DNA of 38,274 bases. Source: an uncultured Candidatus Saccharibacteria bacterium (GTDB lineage: Bacteria > Patescibacteriota > WWE3 > UBA101185 > UBA10185). Every line of letters starts with the position of its first letter. The first letter of the stretch is position 1. Below the pieces are notes generated by a model. The model was not told where the DNA came from, searched no databases, and saw only the letters and a program-made list of their open reading frames with translations. The stretch spans positions 1 through 38,274 of the forward strand of contig CAZHSR010000003.1 of the NCBI GenBank assembly GCA_964535155.1. Reading direction: 5' to 3'. The translations under genes and the position numbers were made by a program. Below are positions 1,180 through 30,506 of this stretch, piece after piece.

Positions 1180-2703
1180 TTACTTTTGCAAATCATCCTG
1201 AGAAGGAATTTTATAAATACAAATTGGGTCACCTCTTCTTAGAAAATTGGAAATAATAAAATCTGGGGTATTTTGAATTTTTACTTTGTCACAAAAGGAA
1301 AATAGGACAAAGGGGTACTCAAACTTGCTTGTTTTTTCTGGAAGCTTTTTTGCTAAAGGAGGCAAGGTCAAGTCAAGGTCAGAACCGTCATAATAAATTT
1401 TGTAAGTTTTTTGCTCAAGAATTGAGAGATTATCCTGATACCATTGCAAAGCCAATATCCTGGTATCCGTTCTTGCAAAAGCAATAGAATTTTTGAGGGA
1501 CATTCCAAGGGGAACAATAAAAATTAAGGTTAAAACAAATAGGTAAGCTTTTTTGGAAAGGCTTTTGGTAATTTCTGCTGCCACCCATCCGATGGAAAGA
1601 GCAATTAAAGGGTATGCCATCATATAATAATGGCTGCGGTTTTTAGAAAATCCTGAAACATAAAAAAGAAAAGCTAGAGCTGGTGGATAAAGGAGGGTTA
1701 AGGCTTGTATTTGAAAAATGGATATTTTTTTGGAAAGGATTTTGTGGATAAATAAGACCAGTCCGAAAACAAATAGGATTACAAAAACAAAACTCCAATC
1801 CGAAGGGAATTTGTCCAAAAAAGCAGAGAAAAATTGAGAAACTTGACTGGAAAAGGATCTACTACCAACATTTGTAAACTGCCAATAGGCGCCTTTGGGA
1901 CCATCGGTGCGACTAAAGGTTTTGTAGTCTAACAGGGCAAAGGGTGTGCCCAAAAGGAAACCTATTAGGGCAAAAATGGCGCTTGTGATAGGTTTGTAGC
2001 TATTTTTAATAATTTGTGGAAATGGGGGGTTTTTTCCAAGAAAGTAAACAAAAAATGCCACTGCAACTAAAAGGGCCGAAAGACCTCCATTATATTTTGT
2101 AGAAGCTGCCAAACCAACAAAAAATCCAGCTTTTATAAAGTTTTTTAAGGAAAAATCGGTTAAGATGCAGGCCGAAAAATATAAAACCCAGGCTACTAGA
2201 AAGGTCATTGGCGCATCTGTAAGGCTGTAGTGAGAATGATGCACACTAAAAGGGAGAAGTGTCATTGATAATGCACCTAATAGTGCAATGCGTTCATTAA
2301 AAAGTTTCTTACCTGCTAAATACACGGGCAAAGCAGTTAAAGCGCCAAGTGTGGCAGTAAAAATTCGAGTGATTAAATAAAAAACTAGGGTATCGTCCCA
2401 AATTATGGGGAAAATGGCGGAGGCAAAGGATTTTAAACTTATGATTTCTAAGCCCTCTCTAAAGGCTGCAAAGCTCATATATACAAAGTAGTTTAGATAA
2501 ATATATAAATGGGGCCAGTCAAAATGCTTTGGATTAGGGAAAAATCTAACACCTAAGGCGGATCTTACGATTGTAGGCTCATCTGGGTGGAAGATATAGG
2601 GAAATCCATGTGTGATACCAAAGAGGCGGAGAAAAAGGGCTAGAAAGATTATGCTAACTATTAACTTGTTCTGCTTAAGATAGCTAAAGGCGATTTTTAA
2701 CAT
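1180..2703 (-). CDS. GT-C fold membrane glycosyltransferase (ArnT/PMT-like family)
   Basis: 507 aa, polytopic with more than 10 hydrophobic segments. Acidic first-loop motif after TM1 (FHPDEPTIVRS), typical of GT-C enzymes. Lies in tandem with two paralogues; its stop is 5 nt from the next start. Confidence 0.7.
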   Translation of the reverse strand: MLKIAFSYLKQNKLIVSIIFLALFLRLFGITHGFPYIFHPDEPTIVRSALGVRFFPNPKHFDWPHLYIYLNYFVYMSFAAFREGLEIISLKSFASAIFPIIWDDTLVFYLITRIFTATLGALTALPVYLAGKKLFNERIALLGALSMTLLPFSVHHSHYSLTDAPMTFLVAWVLYFSACILTDFSLKNFIKAGFFVGLAASTKYNGGLSALLVAVAFFVYFLGKNPPFPQIIKNSYKPITSAIFALIGFLLGTPFALLDYKTFSRTDGPKGAYWQFTNVGSRSFSSQVSQFFSAFLDKFPSDWSFVFVILFVFGLVLFIHKILSKKISIFQIQALTLLYPPALAFLFYVSGFSKNRSHYYMMAYPLIALSIGWVAAEITKSLSKKAYLFVLTLIFIVPLGMSLKNSIAFARTDTRILALQWYQDNLSILEQKTYKIYYDGSDLDLTLPPLAKKLPEKTSKFEYPFVLFSFCDKVKIQNTPDFIISNFLRRGDPICIYKIPSQDDLQK

Positions 2704-4321
2704 ATACTCTCCAATAATTTAATCCGTTTATTTTCATTGTAAAATCGAGGTCAAACTGGTCATTGAGTTCATCAGGCACTTTTTCATTTGGACCTAATAC
2801 AACAATATCATAATTGGAAGGTCCAAATTCGCGGATGTCAAAAATGTGAGAGGATTTGTAGATTCTTGACATGGGCTTTGTGTCATAAAAGCCTAATTTG
2901 GGGGATTCTGTGGATTCCTCATAGGTTCCATATTTGGAAAGAATTTGGTTTTTTAGGTTGGGAATTCCTATACCGAAAGGCTTTTGAGCCACAATATAAT
3001 GGGCATTTTCTGGGGAGCCAACAAGGGGGGTAAAATATGTAAATTGATAAGGATGAAATGCAAAATTTAAAGATAATAGAGCCATAGTAGAGAGAATTAA
3101 AAAGGGTTTTTGGTATTTTTGAGGAATTGTTTTTTCATAACCAATGAAGCTAAAAAGACAAAGGAGGGGAAAAATGGGGATTAAGTAACGATCTATTTTT
3201 TTGGAAGATATTGTCATAGTTGCCATGTAACCTAAGTAGAAAATGGTAAGGATTATCCTTAAGGCCATGGGGTTTTTGCCTTTGATGGGGAGCAAAGAAT
3301 TAAATCTGCTAAGGATTATCCTTGGGAGATCTCGGCTTTTTTCAGCAGTTAGGGCAAAAACCCCCAAGTGCCTAAGGATAATCCTTGTAAAAAGTAGAAG
3401 CCCTATAAATAAAATCGGGGAAGTTTTTAGAAAAATTAAAACAGGATAAAAAGTTAAACCCGGATCAATGGTCTCTTGGCCAAAGTAAATTTGCTCATGC
3501 CCCTTGCGAATCCCAATTCTTTCAGCCTCAGTAAAAATTTTTGTTATTGTATCAATAGGAGCCACCCATGTTGCAGGAAAGAAAACAAAAACCGCCAGAA
3601 AAAACCCCATCAGGAAAAAGAAAATTTGGCGCAAAAGTTCCTTCGGTTGGTTAAAGTAACAAAAAACTAAAAAGGCCAATATAAAGGGCAAACCTCCAAT
3701 TGAGATACTTTTAGTCAAAAATGAAAATGCCAAGAAAACGCCAGAAGCAAAAACATACCACCTTGAAAATTTTTCATTAGGAAAAGCCGAAATATAAGCC
3801 AAAACCAGCGAAATCAGCAAAAAAAGGCTCAACAGAACATCCATGTGAAGCAAGCGAGAATTCCCAATAAAAAAAGGCTCCAAACTAAAAAACCCAACCA
3901 ACAAAACAGCCTTTTTTAAATCAAAGAGCTTCTTAAAGAGCCAAATCAAACCAAGAGAAAGCATCAACTGCGCAAAAACAACAGCATATTTTGCAACCGT
4001 ATGCATCAATATAAAATTTTCTTGATTATAAACCCGCAAAGAAGGCTCAATTTGTCGCACAATCTCTATAGCTACGCCCATGATCCACATTAAAGTCACT
4101 CCAGGATGATAATACTGATAAGTCCTTTCCCATTGATGAGCCTTTAAACCGTCAATAAACTGCTCCGATCTATAATGCCAATTTACTGCATCAGGATTTA
4201 TTGAATCTTGTCCTAAATAGGGAAGGCGCGTTAACAGAAAAAGTGCAACAAAAAGTGCAACCAAAAACCAAGAAGAGTTTATTAAACGATTAAAAAGACT
4301 AGTCGCTTTTTCCAAGAGCAT
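2684..4321 (-). CDS. GT-C fold membrane glycosyltransferase (ArnT/PMT-like family) carrying palindrome cluster A in frame
   Basis: The track ORF is 2684-4381. I prefer the ATG at 4321 (MLLEKATSLFN...), just before TM1. Paralogue motifs are shared with the 1-1175 gene. The segment RIILRHLGVFALTAEKSRDLPRIILSRFNSLLPIKGKNPMALRIIL is encoded by repeat cluster A. Confidence 0.7.
   Translation of the reverse strand: MLLEKATSLFNRLINSSWFLVALFVALFLLTRLPYLGQDSINPDAVNWHYRSEQFIDGLKAHQWERTYQYYHPGVTLMWIMGVAIEIVRQIEPSLRVYNQENFILMHTVAKYAVVFAQLMLSLGLIWLFKKLFDLKKAVLLVGFFSLEPFFIGNSRLLHMDVLLSLFLLISLVLAYISAFPNEKFSRWYVFASGVFLAFSFLTKSISIGGLPFILAFLVFCYFNQPKELLRQIFFFLMGFFLAVFVFFPATWVAPIDTITKIFTEAERIGIRKGHEQIYFGQETIDPGLTFYPVLIFLKTSPILFIGLLLFTRIILRHLGVFALTAEKSRDLPRIILSRFNSLLPIKGKNPMALRIILTIFYLGYMATMTISSKKIDRYLIPIFPLLCLFSFIGYEKTIPQKYQKPFLILSTMALLSLNFAFHPYQFTYFTPLVGSPENAHYIVAQKPFGIGIPNLKNQILSKYGTYEESTESPKLGFYDTKPMSRIYKSSHIFDIREFGPSNYDIVVLGPNEKVPDELNDQFDLDFTMKINGLNYWRVYVKNRL
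3248..3386. repeat. Palindrome cluster A: 3 perfect copies of AAGGATWATCCTT with a 63-bp period, inside a CDS
   Basis: Copies at 3248-3260, 3311-3323 and 3374-3386, separated by two 50-nt spacers. Spacer ends next to the outer copies are inverted repeats of each other (3261-3281 aaggccatggggtttttgcct versus 3351-3373 agggcaaaaacccccaagtgcct). Confidence 0.9.
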
Positions 4322-5300
4322 AAAGTACCCCTCCGATGAGGCTAACCAATAATCTGGAAAAGTGATACAAAATGGAGGCACTTAAAGCCATGGAAGCTGA
4401 AACTCCGACCATGCCAAGAAAGCTCATATATAAGGCATCTTGCACGCCAAATCCGTTGAGGGAAGGGATAAAAAATCCTGCAAAAGTTATGACTGGTAAA
4501 ACGAAGAGGGCAAATGTAAAGGGCACTTCTAGACCAAGGGCTAAGAAAACAAAGTATTGGGGCAAAATGGAAACGGCTTGAATTAGGAAAGAGGTCAGAA
4601 AAGCAATGAATAAAGCTTTTTTTGCGTCTTTATAAACTAGGAGGGAGTCACGAATTTTTCTGAAGAAACCAATTCTTTTTGCGAGTAAATTTAAAGACAA
4701 GAATCCAATTATTGCGGCAATCCAAAATCCTGAGAAAAGGGAAAATTTAAATAAAAAGACCCATAAAGAGTTGGCCTGAATTTCTGGGGGCAAAATTCCT
4801 ACCCAAAAGTCCATTGTTCTAATTAAACCAAAGTAGGAAATAAGAACTAGAGAAGCCATTCCTGTAAAACGCTCCATAAAAGTTGAGGAAAATCCAACTG
4901 CGTTATTTTTTATCTTGCGACCAAGCTGGTACATTTTGTAAACATCTCCACCAACACTTGTAGGCATAAAATTGTTGAAAAAAGATCCAATAAAGTAGAG
5001 ATTAATTAAGTATTTTGTGGAAACTTCTTCGGCATCTTCGGAAAGTAAAAGCATTTTCCAGCGTACGCCACCTATAAAATAATGAATGATGATAAAAATT
5101 GGGACGAAAATGGCGTATCTATAATCTAAAAGGCGAATATTTTCTATGAGTTCTGCGGTGTCAACACGAGTGAAAATTATTAATAACAAAATGGCGCTGG
5201 TGCCTAGTTTTAGGGCCATCTTTTTCCAAGATTTGTTCTTGGTTGTAGTAGTAGTCTCTAGTGTTTTTTCCTGCTCATTCATAACAAAAGAATTATACAC
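4299..5300 (-). CDS. UPF0104 / lysyl-phosphatidylglycerol-synthase-TM-like (flippase-like) membrane protein
   Basis: 333 aa with about 8 TM segments. The motif FMPTSVGGDVYK resembles the conserved GGD/GGE loop of this family. Such genes commonly accompany GT2/GT-C genes. The start could instead be M7 (5282). Confidence 0.55.
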   Translation of the reverse strand: MYNSFVMNEQEKTLETTTTTKNKSWKKMALKLGTSAILLLIIFTRVDTAELIENIRLLDYRYAIFVPIFIIIHYFIGGVRWKMLLLSEDAEEVSTKYLINLYFIGSFFNNFMPTSVGGDVYKMYQLGRKIKNNAVGFSSTFMERFTGMASLVLISYFGLIRTMDFWVGILPPEIQANSLWVFLFKFSLFSGFWIAAIIGFLSLNLLAKRIGFFRKIRDSLLVYKDAKKALFIAFLTSFLIQAVSILPQYFVFLALGLEVPFTFALFVLPVITFAGFFIPSLNGFGVQDALYMSFLGMVGVSASMALSASILYHFSRLLVSLIGGVLYALGKSD

Positions 5301-6072
5301 TAGTAATAAAGTATCTGTTGTACTCGTCCCCTTTTGTGTTAGTGGTGTAGGATTTTAGGATTTCTAGGTGGGCGTCTTGGCAAAGCTTTGTGGCTTCTTC
5401 GGTGGAGATGTAGTGACAATAGCGAATTGCTTCGACGCCTTTTGACCAGGTTAGTAAGTAATCGTGTTCTTCTAATTCTTTTAATTCGGAAAGGTTGATA
5501 TTTTGGCTTTCCCAAGGAGCAACATTTTTGGGAAAATTTGGGGCTTTTACAAATTCCCATGTGGAGAAGACTATTTTTCCTTGAGGGGCTAACAAGGCTT
5601 TAAGGATTTTTAACAGTTCTAATCTCTTTTCATACGAAGGGATGTGATGCAGGACTCCAAAAAGGGCTATAAGGTTAAATTTTTCCTTTGTGAAAGGTTC
5701 TTGCTCGAAGGGGTTTTTTGGATCTGAGCTTAAAATATCAATGGATTTGAAATCGGAATTGGGAAGGTTTTTTTGAGCTTTTTGGAGTAGAAAATCATCA
5801 AAGTCTATGCCAAAGTAATTGGCTTGATTAAAATTAGGAATTTTTTCCTTTAAGAAGAGCCCAAATCTTCCGTTTCCGCAGCCGACATCTAAAACTTTGG
5901 GGGTTTCTTTTAGAGCCTCGTTTGAGATTCCCTCTGAAGCTGTGTCTAGAAAAGGCAAGACGCCGTTCCACCCTTCCCAATAGTATTCTCTAGTGGAATC
6001 AAAGTGAGGTGCAACTCTGGAATAAAATTCTTTATTTATATCGTTAAGGGATTTAATAAGACTTGCATTCAT
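5293..6072 (-). CDS. Class I SAM-dependent methyltransferase, Trm9-like (candidate tRNA mcm5U34 methyltransferase)
   Basis: SAM motif I VLDVGCGNGRFG. N-terminal FYSRVAPHFDSTREYYW matches the Trm9 signature (yeast Trm9 VYNEIAPHFSQTRYKPW, recalled from memory). Also FGVLHHIPSYEKRLELL and the C-terminal IRYCHY (Trm9 YRYYHLY). Divergent from elp3. Confidence 0.7.
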   Translation of the reverse strand: MNASLIKSLNDINKEFYSRVAPHFDSTREYYWEGWNGVLPFLDTASEGISNEALKETPKVLDVGCGNGRFGLFLKEKIPNFNQANYFGIDFDDFLLQKAQKNLPNSDFKSIDILSSDPKNPFEQEPFTKEKFNLIALFGVLHHIPSYEKRLELLKILKALLAPQGKIVFSTWEFVKAPNFPKNVAPWESQNINLSELKELEEHDYLLTWSKGVEAIRYCHYISTEEATKLCQDAHLEILKSYTTNTKGDEYNRYFITSV

Positions 6073-6096: not shown

Positions 6097-6239
6097 AAGG
6101 ATAATCCTTGGAGAAATCTGGAGTTCAGCTTGTCATTAAAACTAAAACGCATAGTTGCCCAAAGGATTATCCTTAACGAAACTCAAGGTTTATCCTGTAA
6201 ATAAAGCTCAAAGTCCCATTTTGTTAAAGGATTATCCTT
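6097..6239. repeat. Palindrome cluster B: 3 perfect copies with a 65-bp period in the Trm9-like/elp3 divergent intergenic region
   Basis: Copies at 6097-6109, 6162-6174 and 6227-6239, with 52-nt spacers. A degenerate copy aaggtttatcctg lies at 6185-6197. Confidence 0.9.
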
Positions 6240-6256: not shown

Positions 6257-7942
6257 ATGTATAAAACTGAAAAATATGCTTTTGACCCTTCTAAATACGA
6301 AGAGGAACTAATTGAAATCTTCAAAGCAGTCGACCAAATAAAAACCCCCGAATGGAATGGGGCTGTATTTAGATCCATTCAAGCAAAATATCCTAAAGAT
6401 AAAAGTAAAATGTTTAGTAAAAATGACTTAATAAAAGGCTATAGATACATCTTATCCAAAGGAAAAATCAAAGGAGGAATCGCTGGTAAAGCTACTGAGT
6501 CAAAAGACCTAATCCAAAAAATCCGTATGAAACCCATTAGAACCCTTTCTGGCGTGACACCAGTTACAGTCCTAACAAAGCCATGGGCGTGTCCGGGTAA
6601 ATGCATTTATTGCCCAAATGAGCCAAACATGCCAAAAAGCTATATTCAAAGCGAACCAGGGGCACAAAGAGCTGCTTTTTTGGACTTTGATCCATATATG
6701 CAGACAGCAAAAAGAATCCAGTCACTACAGCATATTGGGCATAACACAGAAAAGGTTGAGTTAATAGTCTTGGGAGGATCTTGGTCGGTATATCCAGAAA
6801 ATTACAAAAGATGGTTTATAAAACGGTGTTTTGAGGCAATGAATAATCCAGATGAGGAAAGTCCAAATTTAGAAGAAGCGGAAACTTCTTGGGAAGATCT
6901 AGCAAAACAACAAAAAATAAATGAGACAGCAGAACATAAATGCGTGGGACTTTCTTTGGAAACGCGCCCAGATTTAATTACAGAACAAGAGGTCGTTAAA
7001 CTTAGAAGATATGGGGCAACCAAAATTCAAATTGGGATACAAAGCTTAGACGATGAGATTTTGGCAAAAAATTTACGAGGGCACACTGCTTCTACAACAA
7101 AAAAAGCCTTTGAACTTTTGAGACTCTCCGGATTTAAAATTCATGCCCATTGGATGGTAAATTTATTCGGTGCTACTCCAGAAGGCGAAATTGAGGATTT
7201 TAAAAAGCTTTGGTCATCCGATTATTGCCCAGATGAGCTAAAAATTTACCCAACTTCGGTTATTGCAAACACAAAATTAGAGGAATTGTATAAATCTGGG
7301 GAGTATGTCCCCTACTCTACTGAAAAGCTCGTGGAGATTGTGGCAAAGCTAAAAACTATGGTTCCACCTTTTTGCAGGATAACAAGAGTAATTCGCGACA
7401 TCCCTTCACAAGAGATTGTAGCCGGAAGTAAAGTTTCTAATTTGAGGCAAGATGTTAAAAGGTATCTGGAAGAAATTGGCGAAGAGTGTGAATGCATTAG
7501 GTGCCGAGAAATTAGGCAAAATGAAGTGGAAGAAAGCGATTTGATTTTAAAAGTGGACGAATATAAAACTTCGGTTTCTAATGAGTATTTTTTATCTTTT
7601 GTAACGGAAGAAAATAAAATTGCGGGATTCTTGAGGCTTTCTGTGCCATTTGCTGAAAAAAGAGAAGGGCATTTTATTGAGGAGTTAAAAGATTCAGCAA
7701 TAATTAGAGAAGTGCATGTTTATGGGAGCGTTGTTGGTATAGGGAAAGAAGAGGAAGGGAAGGCACAACATTTTGGATTGGGAAAAAAGCTGATTGAAAA
7801 GGCGGAAGAAATTACAAGGGAAAATGGGATAGAAAATCTGGCTGTTATTTCAGCTATTGGAACAAGAGAATATTACAGGAAGAGGGGTTTTGATATAGGG
7901 GATGGGGATTTGTACATGCACAAACAGAAGCTCAACGACTAG
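6257..7942 (+). CDS. elp3: Elp3-family radical SAM / GNAT acetyltransferase (tRNA U34 cm5 modification enzyme)
   Basis: Radical SAM cluster motif CPGKCIYCP. C-terminal GNAT block IREVHVYG...QHFGLGKKLIEKAEEI...ISAIGTREYYRKRGF is typical of Elp3. The track ORF starts at TTG 6155; I prefer ATG 6257 (MYKTEKY...), downstream of the -10 box. Confidence 0.85.
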   Translation: MYKTEKYAFDPSKYEEELIEIFKAVDQIKTPEWNGAVFRSIQAKYPKDKSKMFSKNDLIKGYRYILSKGKIKGGIAGKATESKDLIQKIRMKPIRTLSGVTPVTVLTKPWACPGKCIYCPNEPNMPKSYIQSEPGAQRAAFLDFDPYMQTAKRIQSLQHIGHNTEKVELIVLGGSWSVYPENYKRWFIKRCFEAMNNPDEESPNLEEAETSWEDLAKQQKINETAEHKCVGLSLETRPDLITEQEVVKLRRYGATKIQIGIQSLDDEILAKNLRGHTASTTKKAFELLRLSGFKIHAHWMVNLFGATPEGEIEDFKKLWSSDYCPDELKIYPTSVIANTKLEELYKSGEYVPYSTEKLVEIVAKLKTMVPPFCRITRVIRDIPSQEIVAGSKVSNLRQDVKRYLEEIGEECECIRCREIRQNEVEESDLILKVDEYKTSVSNEYFLSFVTEENKIAGFLRLSVPFAEKREGHFIEELKDSAIIREVHVYGSVVGIGKEEEGKAQHFGLGKKLIEKAEEITRENGIENLAVISAIGTREYYRKRGFDIGDGDLYMHKQKLND

Positions 7943-14440: not shown

Positions 14441-15706
14441 TCATTGTATCAAAAGCTGTTCTAATTCTTTTATGTTCTTGTCTATGTCAAACATTGCCAA
14501 AGCTTTTTGTCGCAAAATTTCACAAGGATAATCCTTGGCCGTTTTGGCACTTTGCTCTGTTGCCACAGGCAAATCCCCCATTTTTATGAAGGATAATCCT
14601 TGAAGGATTGCATCAGCCAATGCCTTTGGATCCCTTTGTGGCACTATCCAACCAGTTTTTTCGTCAACTAATTCAAGGATACTCCCTGCATCTGTTGCAA
14701 CTATTGGCTTTGCCAACATTGCTGCTTCTATTATAAAAGTGGGGATACCATCGGCGTCACCAGAATCTAGGTTTATATTTGACTGCACAACCAAATCACA
14801 GGCCTTTAAATAAGAGACAACTTCATTAAAAGGCACCCCTTCGCCTCCGCCATGTATAAAAACATTATCTTGTAGCCCTAAAGAGGCTATCTGTTGAGTA
14901 AGCTCTTGATACAAAGGACCTGGCCCTGCAATATGCAGTTCAAAATCCAAACCGTTATCCTTTAAAATTTTTGCCGCCTCAATCAAATACTTTTGCCCCT
15001 TCTTTTCTACCAAGCGAGCGCCACCATTAAACAAAAAAGGTCTTGTTCCCCTTTTCGCAGGAGGGACAGAATCAAAGGACGCCACAGAATCTATTCCATG
15101 GTATTGCAATAAAACATTTTCAGGAGCTTCAACACCAGAACGCCTAATGCAATCTTCATAAGCAAAGCGATTACAAATGGAAATGAATTTTGCGGTTGCT
15201 ACTTTGGAAGCAAAAAATTCACCTTCTACCATTACATCCTTTGCATGTGCCGAAATACTATATGGAATTTCCAGCAACTTTGACCCTATCATTGCCATTG
15301 TAGAAGGCCACGACATGAAATTTGCATGAATATGATCAGGAGAAAGTTGTTTAAATAAGTAAGCATATCCAACCGATTTGGCAAAAATAACCAATTTTTT
15401 GGCTAAAGTTTCTTCCTTTGTGGAAAGTAAAAATCTAAAAGTTTTCCCTAAAACCGAAGGTTTCCTGCTCAAAAAATAAATCCAAGCTCTAATTGCCGTT
15501 ACAAAATCCAATCTCTGATAAACAACATGAGTTGCAACATTATCAAATAATCTTCCACTAGCCTTTTCCAAAGAGAAAACAGTTATTTCTAAATTTCCTA
15601 AATCTACGAGCTTAGAAATTTCCCTCTGAATAAAAGTTTCAGTTAAACGCGGAAACTCAGGAACAAAAATAAGAATTTTCTTTTTTTTGTCCTGATTTTT
15701 CTGCAT
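14441..15706 (-). CDS. GT4 family glycosyltransferase carrying palindrome cluster C in frame near its C-terminus
   Basis: 421 aa. DGIPTFIIEAAMLAKPIVATD block. The C-terminal segment QGLSFIKMGDLPVATEQSAKTAKDYPC is encoded by the repeat cluster. Confidence 0.8.
   Translation of the reverse strand: MQKNQDKKKKILIFVPEFPRLTETFIQREISKLVDLGNLEITVFSLEKASGRLFDNVATHVVYQRLDFVTAIRAWIYFLSRKPSVLGKTFRFLLSTKEETLAKKLVIFAKSVGYAYLFKQLSPDHIHANFMSWPSTMAMIGSKLLEIPYSISAHAKDVMVEGEFFASKVATAKFISICNRFAYEDCIRRSGVEAPENVLLQYHGIDSVASFDSVPPAKRGTRPFLFNGGARLVEKKGQKYLIEAAKILKDNGLDFELHIAGPGPLYQELTQQIASLGLQDNVFIHGGGEGVPFNEVVSYLKACDLVVQSNINLDSGDADGIPTFIIEAAMLAKPIVATDAGSILELVDEKTGWIVPQRDPKALADAILQGLSFIKMGDLPVATEQSAKTAKDYPCEILRQKALAMFDIDKNIKELEQLLIQ
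14443..14451 (-). promoter_or_regulatory. Extended -10 (TGaTACAAT) placed for a leaderless start of the GT4 gene at 14436
   Basis: The minus strand reads TGATACAAT-gaatcc-ATG. It overlaps the 3' end of the upstream GT4 gene. Confidence 0.4.
14524..14601. repeat. Palindrome cluster C: 2 perfect copies 65 bp apart, inside a CDS
   Basis: AAGGATAATCCTT at 14524-14536 and 14589-14601, with a 52-nt spacer. Total length 78 bp = 26 codons. Confidence 0.9.
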
Positions 15707-27847: not shown

Positions 27848-28831
27848 CTAGTACCAAACGAAATTATTCTCCAACCAGTTAAGAATTGCCTTTGTTTCGG
27901 GGAATCTAGCCTCACTTCCCATTAGAATTATTAACAAATCCTTGTCTTCATCTGCATATTCATAAATTAAAACTTCCCTTGCCTGACTTGTTGTACCAGT
28001 TTTAATTCCTACGGATCCTGAAATTTGGGTTAAAAGCTGATTTGTTGAGTAAATTGTTCTTGGGATATTACCTGTTTCTAGGTTATAAAAAGGCTTGGCA
28101 TAAATTTCTTTAATTAAGGCATTTGCCTTTGCTCTTTGTGCCAAAATGTAAAGATCCTTTGCTGTAGACTTATGAGAATAATCAAAGCTGTCAAAGCCAA
28201 CGGGATTGGTAAAAATTGTATTTACCATGCCAAATTGAAGGGCTTTTTGGTTCATCAGTTGAACAAAAGTCTCTTCGGTTGTGGCGGTGTTAGCTAAAAT
28301 ACATGCAGCATCATTTGAAGAGGAAATCAGGGTCGCATGCAGAAGGTCTTTTACTGAAATTTCTTCGGCGAGGGTCAGGTCCAGGCGATTTCCTTCTACA
28401 TTTAGACACTTTTCTGGCGTATTAGATATGGGCAAGATTTCATCTAGGGAGTAAAGATCTAAACTCACTAATGCTGTCATAAGCTTTGTTGTTGAAGCTG
28501 GTGCCAAAATTGTGTCGGGATTCTTTTGATAAAGGATTCTTGTTGTGTTTAGATCTGCAACCAAAACCGATTTTGCTGATAAAGTAGGGAATTTTGCTTT
28601 TGTGGCGTTTGTGTTGGCGGCTCCTACTGCATGGGGGATTTTTGTCATACTTCCCAGAGTCACGGGATATAGTGTGAGGGATAATCCCTCAACCGAAAAG
28701 AGCTTCTCCCTATTGAGAAGGGTAAAAACCACAATTGCCACAAGGATTATCCTTCGCTCAATCCACACCAAGACTTTCAGTAAGGCATTAAGTGAAATTT
28801 CGTTAAGGATTATCCCTCGGACTATAGGCAT
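27848..28831 (-). CDS. D-alanyl-D-alanine carboxypeptidase (peptidase S11 / PBP5-like); the N-terminal ~55 aa are encoded by palindrome cluster D
   Basis: SxxK (ASTTKLMT), SxN (SSSNDAA) and KTG (IKTGTT) motifs. The ATG at 28831 is 3 nt after the aspS stop. The only hydrophobic anchor (RRIILVAIVVFTLL) lies within the repeat cluster. An alternative start at M62 (28648) would leave no export signal. Confidence 0.75.
   Translation of the reverse strand: MPIVRGIILNEISLNALLKVLVWIERRIILVAIVVFTLLNREKLFSVEGLSLTLYPVTLGSMTKIPHAVGAANTNATKAKFPTLSAKSVLVADLNTTRILYQKNPDTILAPASTTKLMTALVSLDLYSLDEILPISNTPEKCLNVEGNRLDLTLAEEISVKDLLHATLISSSNDAACILANTATTEETFVQLMNQKALQFGMVNTIFTNPVGFDSFDYSHKSTAKDLYILAQRAKANALIKEIYAKPFYNLETGNIPRTIYSTNQLLTQISGSVGIKTGTTSQAREVLIYEYADEDKDLLIILMGSEARFPETKAILNWLENNFVWY
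28677..28817. repeat. Palindrome cluster D: 3 copies (one perfect, two C/G variants) with periods of 65 and 63 bp
   Basis: AGGGATAATCCCT at 28677-28689, AAGGATTATCCTT at 28742-28754 and AAGGATTATCCCT at 28805-28817. The spacer module 28719-28741 agggtaaaaaccacaattgccac resembles 3351-3373 in cluster A. Confidence 0.85.
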
Positions 28832-28834
28832 TAA

Positions 28835-30124
28835 TTATGGCTTTAATCTTTTTACATCCCTTGGCAAATAGGTTGCTTCCTTTATTGTAGGCAAATCCAA
28901 GATTTTCATGACAATTCTACCTGGGCCAATTCCTGCCCCTCCATGAGGCGGACAGCCATATTTAAAGAACTCCAAATAGTCATGAATTGACTCCAAGGAT
29001 AACCCTTTGCCTTCTGCCTGAGCTTTTAACACATCCAACCGATGCTCCCTTTGCGCTCCAGTTGTAATTTCCACACCTTTATAAAGCAAATCAAAGCTCT
29101 TGGTAATTTCCGGCCTATCTTCATATCGCATATGATAAAAAGGTCGCGCGTCTTTATACCAATTTGTGACAAAGACAAAGTCATGCCCAGTTTCCTCTTT
29201 TATAATCTCGCAAATTCTTCGCTCCTCTTCCGGGCTTATGTCATGCTCTTTTTCGCTAGGCACTCCAGCTTGAGCCAGCTTTTCCTTTATTTCCACCATC
29301 TCCAACCGAGGGAATGGGCGCCCAGGCACTTCCAGATGGGGCAAAACAGTGGATTTGAGCTGTTCAAATCCAGATACAATGGCAGATTCCAAAACATCCA
29401 TAACTTCTTCGGGTCCATTTATGTAAGAAATCTCAAAGTCCCATCCAGTAAATTCGGTTAAATGCCTAGTTGTAAACGAAGGTTCTGCACGAAATACAGG
29501 TCCCGTCATAAAGACCTTTTCCAACCCAGAAGCCATAGCCATTTGCTTGTAAAACTGAGGAGATTGTGCCAAATAGGCCTTTGTCTCAAAATAACCGACC
29601 TCAAAAACATCAGCGCCAGACTCACTTGGGGCACTCATAAACGAAGGAGTATACAGCTGAACAAAATCGTTTTCCAAAAAGTATTTGCGGAAACCCTCTT
29701 CCAATTGAGTCCAAACCTTAAAAATTTGCTGCTTTTCCGGTCGACGCAAATCCAGCCAACGAAAATCCAATCGCTTTGAAACATCAACTTCCCCCCCACT
29801 TTTCTCAAAAACCACAGGAATTGCAAGTTCTGGAGCTGCTAAAGATAAAATTTCCATATCAGATACGGCAATTTCTACGCCATTAGGAGCTTGAGCTTCT
29901 TCTTTTACCAAGCCTTCCAGGGAGATAACCGATTCCAAAGTTAAATCTGCAATTTTTGGAAATGCCAAAGAGTCCGCACGAATTACAGCTTGAATTGTGC
30001 CTGTAATATCGCGAAGGTTTAAAAATTTAATCTTTCCTTGATCGCGAATACTTTCCACAAAACCAGATACTTGAGCAGTTTTGCCAATTTGAGATTTAAT
30101 TTGGCTTATTTTTGTTCTTTCCAT
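28835..30124 (-). CDS. aspS: Aspartate--tRNA ligase, archaeal/type-2 form (possibly non-discriminating)
   Basis: 429 aa. N-terminal OB anticodon-binding domain, class II motif 2 GPVFRAEPS, motif 3 GGAGIGPGR, and a C-terminal PRDVKRLKP as in archaeal-type AspRS. Confidence 0.85.
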   Translation of the reverse strand: MERTKISQIKSQIGKTAQVSGFVESIRDQGKIKFLNLRDITGTIQAVIRADSLAFPKIADLTLESVISLEGLVKEEAQAPNGVEIAVSDMEILSLAAPELAIPVVFEKSGGEVDVSKRLDFRWLDLRRPEKQQIFKVWTQLEEGFRKYFLENDFVQLYTPSFMSAPSESGADVFEVGYFETKAYLAQSPQFYKQMAMASGLEKVFMTGPVFRAEPSFTTRHLTEFTGWDFEISYINGPEEVMDVLESAIVSGFEQLKSTVLPHLEVPGRPFPRLEMVEIKEKLAQAGVPSEKEHDISPEEERRICEIIKEETGHDFVFVTNWYKDARPFYHMRYEDRPEITKSFDLLYKGVEITTGAQREHRLDVLKAQAEGKGLSLESIHDYLEFFKYGCPPHGGAGIGPGRIVMKILDLPTIKEATYLPRDVKRLKP

Positions 30125-30430: not shown

Positions 30431-30506
30431 GGGGCGGTAGCCAAGGTGGTCACGGCACCGGTCTGAAAAACCGGCGATGTGGGTTCGACTCCCACCCTCC
30501 CCACCA
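30431..30506 (+). tRNA. tRNA-Phe (anticodon GAA), CCA encoded
   Basis: Hand-folded cloverleaf of 76 nt. Acceptor stem GGGGCGG/CCTCCCC has one C5:U68 mismatch. U8, A14, G18G19 and A21 are present. Anticodon arm CCGGT-CTGAAAA-ACCGG. 4-nt variable loop. T arm GTGGG-TTCGACT-CCCAC. Discriminator A followed by CCA. Confidence 0.85.

Follow-up and report, generated by a model that had tools for sequence, protein, structure and literature searches.

The stretch of DNA analysed here (the window) is a 38 274-nucleotide stretch (positions 1–38 274) of contig CAZHSR010000003.1 of an uncultured bacterium assigned to the WWE3 lineage of the Patescibacteriota, and the subject of this report is a short palindromic DNA repeat that forms four arrays (A, B, C and D) in it. 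Array A lies inside a gene for a GT-C (PMT_2/ArnT-like) glycosyltransferase at positions 2684–4381 of the minus strand, where the open reading frame (ORF) has 565 codons when counted from GTG at 4381; the protein P0001 is the corresponding gene call of 545 residues, which starts from ATG at 4321. Three tandem GT-C (PMT_2) paralogues lie on the minus strand (1–1175, 1180–2703 and 2684–4381), and their order and overlapping starts agree with those in the sister contig L007; the array is found only in the third.

Array A consists of three boxes matching AAGGATWATCCTT, with starts at 3248, 3311 and 3374 (63 + 63 bp). Box 1 (3248–3260; AAGGATTATCCTT) is a perfect 6-1-6 palindrome that encodes RIIL on the minus (coding) strand, box 2 (3311–3323; also AAGGATTATCCTT) is the centre of a 139-nt imperfect palindrome and box 3 (3374–3386; AAGGATAATCCTT) is again a perfect palindrome of 13 nt. 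Spacers A1 (3261–3310) and A2 (3324–3373) are both 50 nt in length. In A1 the minus strand carries GGCAAAAACCCC, which is GGGGTTTTTGCC when the plus strand is read, at a distance of 8 nt from box 1, and in A2 the plus strand carries GGCAAAAACCCC 9 nt ahead of box 3; A2 is homologous both to A1, in inverted orientation, and to the first spacer of array D (D1). The minus-strand ORF translates the array as FT-RIIL-RHLGVFALTAEKSRDLP-RIIL-SRFNSLLPIKGKNPMAL-RIIL-T. A preliminary description of this DNA had reported three palindromes with a 63-bp period that are read three times as RIIL in one frame, and this was confirmed, with chance excluded by shuffled sequences. The imperfect inverted repeats that it had reported at the outer ends were also recovered, as 30-nt arms (3248–3277 and 3357–3386) that are 83% complementary. 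They arise from two homologous 63-bp units that lie in opposite orientation around the central box, and in array D two units likewise face each other about a central box. The suggestion that these arms mark the boundary of a transposon is not borne out by the arms alone: the units of the corresponding array in contig L008 are direct repeats, and neither a target-site duplication nor a transposase was found in the DNA examined. A 147-nt segment containing array A folds far more stably than its shuffled counterparts (z = −7.6 for the plus and −6.5 for the minus strand), and a terminator and promoter scan of the array gave no match. On the opposite strand, 3243–3449 (+) is an open ORF of 68 residues that also reads RIIL three times, as the box gives RIIL on both strands; this ORF looks spurious.

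The host ORF is unbroken across array A and the conserved C-terminal domain follows in frame, so that the array is read through. Translational bypass, in which a hop like that of T4 gene 60 would skip the 50-nt gap between identical boxes, was rejected: no ORF is interrupted, and what is conserved downstream follows in the read-through frame and not in the frame set by the boxes. The host protein matches Pfam PMT_2 (PF13231) with 29.8 bits (cut-off 26.1). Its AlphaFold2 (AF2) model has a mean predicted local distance difference test score (pLDDT) of 78 and a predicted template modelling score (pTM) of 0.84, and the best PDB matches of this model in Foldseek are ArnT (5ezm/5f15), AglB, STT3 and Pmt4. 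On these matches and the model the protein is assigned to the GT-C class, for which a PMT_2/ArnT-type fold with multiple transmembrane (TM) helices, an acidic motif in the first loop and a C-terminal soluble domain are characteristic. Its homologues come from candidate division WWE3.

When 22 homologues are aligned, the insert lies in a variable segment that separates two TM helices; P0002, the closest sister protein (65% identity), has no counterpart to it. The host protein has 69 residues between the landmarks SPIL and KKIDRY (73 counting SPIL) and the truncated paralogue encoded at 1–1175 has 40 (44 counting SPFL), which bears out the difference of 29 counted previously. Across 97 homologues the median distance between the landmarks is 50 residues and the values range from 39 to 62, except for four outliers: P0003 (81), P0013 (73), P0021 (73) and the host protein (71). 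The long loop of P0013, encoded on contig L019, was considered as a further box-bearing case and rejected, as there are no boxes in it. Array A thus adds about 21 residues relative to the family median and 29 relative to the paralogue. The earlier statement that some 29 extra residues coincide with the repeat cluster stands as to this net gain (about 21–29), but the module itself spans 47 codons; the gain is smaller because the outer boxes fall on the ends of the TM helices to either side. In the AF2 model (P0001 numbering) helix 302–328 enters the insert and is followed by a short helix (332–343), a loop (344–353) and the next TM helix (354–371), with a pLDDT of 54–64 over residues 321–350. 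The insert is therefore modelled between two TM helices, in agreement with the loop position that had been proposed, and helix parity and the richness of the loop in Lys and Arg would place it on the cytoplasmic side. A phmmer search with the insert peptide against 1.84 billion representative proteins found no homologue; its sole match, P0361 (167 residues), contains FQSTLPIKGET repeats and is evidently a translated CRISPR array that was miscalled as a gene.

Four arrays and the repeat unit

With one mismatch at most, AAGGATWATCCTT occurs 11 times in the window, compared with 0.23 expected copies, and none of 100 shuffles reached 11. The core GGATWATCC of the box likewise has 11 copies (0.2–0.3 expected), all of them within the four arrays. 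Seven pairs of boxes have a spacing of 61–67 bp; in shuffled sequences the mean is 0.2 and the maximum is 3.

Array B (6097–6239) has three boxes (starts 6097, 6162 and 6227; spacing 65 + 65 bp) and is intergenic, between a methyltransferase gene (minus) and an Elp3-like gene (plus). It contains stop codons in all six frames and its last box adjoins GGTATAAT. The Elp3-like gene (6258–7942, plus) encodes radical SAM, Radical_SAM_C and GNAT domains; in the window the array stands between the TATAAT box of this gene and the upstream promoter DNA that L007 shows, with a new junction that reads TGGTATAAT.

Array C (14524–14601) has two boxes (starts 14524 and 14589; 65 bp) and lies in frame close to the 3′ end of the gene for a GT1 glycosyltransferase (14441–15706, minus), where the boxes encode GLS and KDYP. 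On the coding strand the left flank (14602–14612) has the ancestral sequence GCA ATC CTT (A-I-L) followed by the first box, and together they read AATCCTT-C-AAGGATT, a 7-1-7 palindrome of permuted half-sites that may hint at a half-site target.

Array D (28677–28817) has three boxes (starts 28677, 28742 and 28805; spacing 65 + 63 bp), which are AGGGATAATCCCT, AAGGATTATCCTT and AAGGATTATCCCT in this order. It lies in a D-Ala-D-Ala carboxypeptidase gene (27848–28831, minus), in the part that codes for the N-terminal membrane-anchor region. A solo near-box, AAGGATAACCCTT, is found at 28995–29007 in the 3′ end of the AsnRS/AspRS gene and is conserved in four species (counterparts at L012 1808, L013 1186 and L020 232); its translation, KGLSLD, belongs to a conserved stretch of the enzyme, and the near-box may thus be held by the protein sequence. 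A known RNA family was rejected as an identity for the arrays, the sole Rfam match in the window being a tRNA gene at 30431–30503 (plus).

Sixteen arrays from all sources were studied. The unit is bounded on both sides by the 13-bp perfect palindromic box AAGGAT-W-ATCCTT, and the weakly conserved spacers of 50–52 bp give a period of 63–65 bp, or about six helical turns. Arrays hold 2–5 boxes in modules of 76–206 bp, and their units are in direct or inverted orientation; those of L008 and of array J3 in the WWE3 genome WJKK01000001 (WJKK) are direct repeats. The centre base of perfect boxes is always A or T, and the centre bases of neighbouring boxes are complementary in 10 of 24 pairs, which is about the chance level. 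Spacers fold slightly better than shuffled sequences (mean z = −0.8; 26 units) and have no common shape. Fifteen of the 26 units from all sources, some of them in the distant WJKK genome, contain an A-tract resembling GGCAAAAACCCC that lies 29–31 nt after one box and 8–10 nt ahead of the next. Six of 136 spacer pairs score above the 99th percentile of shuffles, including A1/A2 (inverted) and A2/D1 (score 22; 99th percentile 19).

The boxes are read as RIIL in array A and in boxes 1 and 2 of array D, as GLS in box 1 of array C and box 3 of array D, and as KDYP in box 2 of array C. Because the boxes occur in three reading frames and array B is noncoding, the repeat unit is, on the evidence of its sequence, a DNA feature and not a protein motif. 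The peptide likeness between arrays A and D that had been pointed out previously is real but weak, and it is a by-product of homology between the DNA units; both arrays belong to one dispersed repeat family.

Distribution and conservation of the arrays

The scans looked for the exact T-type box, which makes their counts minimum values, and covered genomes at one per species. The exact two-box pattern was found in one of 185 579 species genomes, namely the WWE3 metagenome-assembled genome WJKK01000001 (864 kb), at six loci. A scan of metagenomes gave two plausible relatives, L009 and L010, together with L011 (AACY020535665.1; 61% GC), which was discarded as an unrelated simple 63-bp tandem duplication that happens to contain AAGGATTATCCTT. 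In L010 a T-type and a C-type box lie 4 nt apart. None of the viral contigs scanned carries either box variant, and a phage origin was rejected for this reason. The 13-mer was absent from the literature searched, in which no description of such repeats in the candidate phyla radiation (CPR) was found either. The arrays belong to a previously undescribed, small and clade-restricted family of phased palindromic repeats.

The WJKK arrays have the same box and the same 63–65 bp period but are located at loci other than those in the window. Five are intergenic (Lgt/RpiB, M50 peptidase/YqeY, RecG/RsmD, GatB/PolA and upstream of rplJ). The sixth (L002 2684–2760; two boxes) lies in the reading frame of RNase HII, after the DEAGRG strand and before the DSKKL helix; the unit is translated there as …ALNKAHL-EGLSLWLERLETVTKANSDEKSRIILN-PRNYD… and divides the Pfam RNase_HII match in two. 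No box peptides are seen in the proteins of WJKK that are orthologous to the hosts of arrays A, C and D. The family is therefore dispersed, with arrays at other loci in other lineages, both between genes and inside reading frames that are kept open and in frame.

Sister genomes also differ in whether they have an array. Two sister contigs, L007 and L017, which together are syntenic with the window over about 40 kb, contain no boxes. The intergenic region that holds array B is about 41 nt in length in L007 compared with 185 nt in the window, and the window without 6097–6239 is collinear with L007. At the empty site in L007 (about 5496–5520) a near-box, AAGGCATTATCTTG, stands directly ahead of ATATAAT, in the position that the third box of array B occupies relative to GTATAAT in the window; it could be either the footprint of a solo box or a preferred target. 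For array A, the proposal of a lineage-restricted insertion held in part: the array is absent from L007, but at the same codon in L008, which encodes P0003, there is a homologous insert of three decayed boxes (AGGGTCTATCCTT, AAGGATGATCCTT and AAGGATACTCCTT) with a spacing of 63/63 bp.

Arrays C and D have a longer history. The carboxypeptidases of L012 and L013/L014 are about 67 and 61% identical to that of the window, and array D is present in both, with boxes at the window positions, a spacing of 63/65/65 bp and a fourth box that the window has lost. L015 retains one near-box at the D locus and L020 retains relics such as AAGGAGATCCTT. Array C is present in L016, likewise with a spacing of 65 bp. 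Between these species fourfold-degenerate sites are 35–46% identical, i.e. essentially saturated; their identity to the window is 0.41–0.46 for box-bearing contigs and 0.27–0.35 for box-less contigs. Despite this saturation, arrays C and D keep their positions, their 63/65 bp spacing and their palindromic boxes in L012, L013 and L016, and 14 of 21 orthologous boxes are still perfect palindromes. Array D, treated in the preliminary description as a copy of the same module, is thus an old array held at its orthologous site and not a fresh insertion.

In one lineage changes within the boxes were concerted. L013 and L016 both come from sample ERZ1742330, plausibly from one population. With the imperfect first box set aside, all five array boxes in the ERZ1742330 contigs are AAGGACWGTCCTT, that is AAGGAC-W-GTCCTT (starts 1446, 1511 and 1576 in L013; 1209 and 1274 in L016), which differs from the common box by a symmetric change of T:A to C:G at positions 6 and 8. 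In one of these boxes the double change is synonymous (TTA to CTG), and in others it alters the peptide (RIIL to RTVL and KDYP to KDSP). Another symmetric double change is seen in the window itself, in the box at 28677 (AGGGATAATCCCT). By simple arithmetic a second hit restores symmetry by chance in about 1 in 33 cases, and two independent events of this kind have a probability of about 10^−3. The comparison of orthologues shows that the boxes are under constraint as palindromes, evidently at the level of the nucleic acid. Solo T-type boxes in the ERZ1742330 contigs are explained by the KGLSLD coding motif and by a 12-nt tandem duplication. The latter (TCTGGGAAGGAT/TCTGGAAAGGAT) lies at 640–680 of L016 in the GT1 gene and gives SGKDSGKD; the result is a perfect solo box, AAGGATAATCCTT, which neither the window nor L017 has.

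Comparison with known repeat families

Short palindromic repeats that are inserted in frame into unrelated genes of a reduced genome and are translated there have been described as Rickettsia palindromic elements (RPEs; Ogata et al. 2000, as summarised in PMC10969869). According to that summary, RPEs are elements of about 100–150 bp that are dispersed in a reduced genome, lie in frame in housekeeping genes and fall in loops or surface segments, all of which is shared by the WWE3 repeat; its in-frame arrays likewise leave the host ORF preserved, in the genes for the GT-C and GT1 glycosyltransferases, the DD-carboxypeptidase and RNase HII. According to the same source RPEs encode a family-specific conserved peptide (PMC10969869), whereas the WWE3 repeat has no intrinsic ORF, is read in three frames and in array B is closed in all six. 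It is further set apart from RPEs by an architecture in which 13-bp perfect palindromes are strictly phased and the number and orientation of the units vary, and by the host phylum (Patescibacteria/WWE3).

Repetitive extragenic palindromic (REP) sequences, with the bacterial interspersed mosaic elements (BIMEs) and the REP doublets that form hairpins (REPINs), resemble the WWE3 arrays in that short palindromes are clustered in variable numbers and in both orientations, are inherited vertically and persist for a long time in a lineage. In both cases the master sequence is long conserved and decays where a trans-acting enzyme is presumed to be lost, and compensatory changes preserve the palindrome. 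REPs are 20–40-nt imperfect palindromes with a 5′ GTAG, whereas the WWE3 boxes are perfect, have 13 nt and a 63–65 bp period and lack GTAG; REPs are almost exclusively extragenic, whereas WWE3 arrays overlap ORFs in three of the four cases in the window and in WJKK array J2. In REP systems a single-copy gene for a REP-associated tyrosine transposase (RAYT; Y1 type) is flanked by the repeats; no Y1_Tnp match was obtained among the ORFs scanned in the available contigs.

The arrays also have the appearance of MITEs (miniature transposable elements with inverted repeats): the modules are small, below the MITE limit of about 300–500 bp, with no transposase domain in or beside them, and the 13-bp box stands at both module ends (in array A within the longer arms); inverted and direct terminal repeats are indistinguishable here, because the box is itself palindromic. 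There are dispersed copies (four arrays in 38 kb and six WJKK loci) and filled and empty sites (arrays A and B are absent from L007/L017). No cognate autonomous element with the same ends was present in the contigs examined. Pneumococcal BOX, Correia/NEMIS, ERIC and RUP elements are similarly modular, with variable internal units and hairpins, and BOX and other modular MITEs have no transposase of their own and occur occasionally in genes or beside promoters. BOX has distinct A, B and C modules and Correia-type MITEs have 26-bp terminal inverted repeats and a TA duplication, whereas in the WWE3 repeat one and the same palindromic box forms every unit boundary and there is no visible duplication. 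The arrays differ from CRISPRs, which have repeats of 23–50 nt, unrelated spacers, a noncoding location and cas genes nearby; no cas domains were found.

The chromosomal sites read by MatP (matS), ParB (parS), Noc and SlmA are short perfect palindromes that are often located in genes, are conserved as DNA and are read by dimers, and matS is a 6-1-6 13-mer. Such sites are solitary and are not known to be insertion-polymorphic between sister genomes. The WWE3 boxes differ from them in lying in arrays phased at 64 bp with homologous spacers, and in having unrelated sequences.

Interpretation and implications

We consider it moderately probable that the arrays represent a REP/MITE-like, non-autonomous modular repeat that can sit in reading frames, and that the boxes are read by a putative trans-acting protein. 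Such a repeat would spread by insertion near box-like DNA, and its arrays would grow and shrink through duplication or deletion between boxes. The boxes would be the functional part, and the reader, encoded elsewhere, would be a DNA binder with two-fold symmetry or an enzyme specific for hairpins. Recognition by this reader would account both for the palindromes that are kept at orthologous sites and for their concerted change in one lineage, and copies in genes would persist only where the peptide is tolerated, as RIIL at the end of a TM helix or as GLS and KDYP in loops. That the boxes are recognition sites of a protein is something we infer from the substitutions: that separate loci changed identically and in concert points to a common reader, or to conversion, and not to independent compensatory evolution. 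The symmetry of the box suggests a dimer on duplex DNA or an enzyme that recognises a hairpin or cruciform, and the low complementarity of neighbouring centre bases argues against selected duplexes between boxes. The decay of the boxes in L008, L015 and L020 resembles that of REPINs once the cognate RAYT transposase is lost (bioRxiv 10.1101/2021.07.10.451892) and is counted in favour of a mobile element.

Several points weigh against this explanation. No transposase or obvious DNA-binding candidate was found in the window or beside the six WJKK arrays, and the unannotated ORFs of the window and the ORFs beside the WJKK arrays gave no transposase or helix–turn–helix match. No target-site duplication is discernible by direct reading at ten arrays, although the box could itself be the duplicated target, as the near-box at the empty B site in L007 and the half-box that flanks array C suggest. 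In view of these negative results the mechanism is one that we infer. The same near-box in L007 leaves array B open to two equally possible histories, gain by way of a box-like target or loss that left a solo box. The N-terminal region at the D locus is equally long in box-less orthologues, so that array D is not a simple recent insertion. Models of selfish elements do not by themselves explain intact old copies at fixed loci, and the number of arrays available for study is small.

We also propose, more tentatively, an undescribed and vertically persistent cis/trans system in a CPR lineage, in which the boxes would stay intact, even within essential ORFs, across a divergence at which synonymous sites are saturated, and may co-evolve with a lineage-specific symmetric or hairpin-specific reader. 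A system of this kind, which we likewise treat as a possibility, could take two forms: a REPIN/RAYT-like 'domesticated replicator' that, in contrast to REPINs, sits within genes, or new chromosome-organising sites that are spread by a mobile module.

The main rival is that the boxes are cis-elements of the host, with mobility incidental or ancient. They would be phased operator or architectural sites for a dimeric DNA-binding protein (a repressor, a nucleoid-associated protein or a segregation protein), placed six helical turns apart for cooperative binding or looping. We regard this as rather unlikely, although much of the evidence set out above suits it: the boxes are kept at orthologous sites in spite of saturated synonymous divergence, the symmetric change is concerted over two loci in the ERZ1742330 contigs, the centre base of perfect boxes is restricted to A/T, the A-tract has a fixed offset and the 63–65 bp spacing is constant in lineages whose proteins are only about 50% identical. 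In array B and L010, moreover, the last box adjoins the extended −10-like sequence TGGTATAAT in a divergent intergenic region; a consensus promoter scan calls no promoter at the junction in array B. The loci do not form a coherent regulon (GT-C, GT1, DD-carboxypeptidase, RNase HII, Lgt/RpiB, RecG/RsmD, GatB/PolA and upstream of rplJ), and two arrays lie deep within ORFs. A fixed host function also fits poorly with a sister lineage that has no arrays, with WJKK arrays at entirely different loci and with the decay of array A in L008. A resemblance of the box to DnaA or Fur boxes (TTATCC and GATAAT occur in it) was considered and dropped, since symmetry and flanks do not fit.

An element that acts in RNA, with boxes that pair in the transcript and control mRNA processing, stability or translation, is improbable. 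The very strong folding of array A on both strands is in its favour, as are the symmetric changes, which keep self-complementarity in the box at 28677 (AGGGATAATCCCT) and in the AAGGACWGTCCTT boxes, and the slight folding excess of the spacers. Palindromes pair trivially, however, and beyond array A the predicted structure is essentially box–box pairing (z of about −3), for which the centre bases of neighbours show no preference above chance. An identical substitution at an identical position in five boxes at two loci is unlike independent compensatory evolution, the units occur in both orientations relative to transcription, and neither an Rfam match nor a terminator-like site was found at the arrays.

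Selection on the protein, with RIIL and a 21-residue period as, for example, a membrane-interface motif and the palindrome as a side effect, is very improbable. RIIL does suit the cytoplasmic end of a TM helix and RRIIL is conserved in several carboxypeptidase orthologues, but the explanation is effectively refuted by the occurrence of the same 13-mer in three frames and in noncoding DNA. The peptide in L013 is altered (RIIL to RTVL and KDYP to KDSP) while the palindrome is kept, in one case by the synonymous TTA to CTG change, and the phmmer search found no homologue of the insert apart from the translated CRISPR artefact. Chance, low-complexity sequence, an assembly artefact or a CRISPR-like array, to which the regular repeat–spacer layout with variable spacers might point, has a negligible probability given the shuffle controls, the same arrays in independent assemblies of different samples, and 13-nt repeats that have mutually homologous spacers, lie in conserved ORFs and are without cas genes.

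The in-frame insertion of short repeats is best known from Rickettsia, and a structurally different family in an ultra-small Patescibacteria genome shows that it recurs in reduced genomes. The WWE3 repeat adds a source of lineage-specific insertions in CPR proteins; its arrays can mislead gene callers and yield spurious 'RIIL' motifs, and they could serve to mark a subclade. What is unusual is the long-term constraint at the nucleic acid level, which is expressed in orthologous positions, preserved spacing and concerted symmetric substitutions. If the boxes are indeed read by a protein, the distribution of this protein should track the integrity of the boxes and its DNA-reading residues should differ in the lineage with AAGGACWGTCCTT boxes. 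Should a co-evolving box reader be confirmed, the WWE3 repeat would be of greater interest than as a case of in-frame insertion in the CPR alone.

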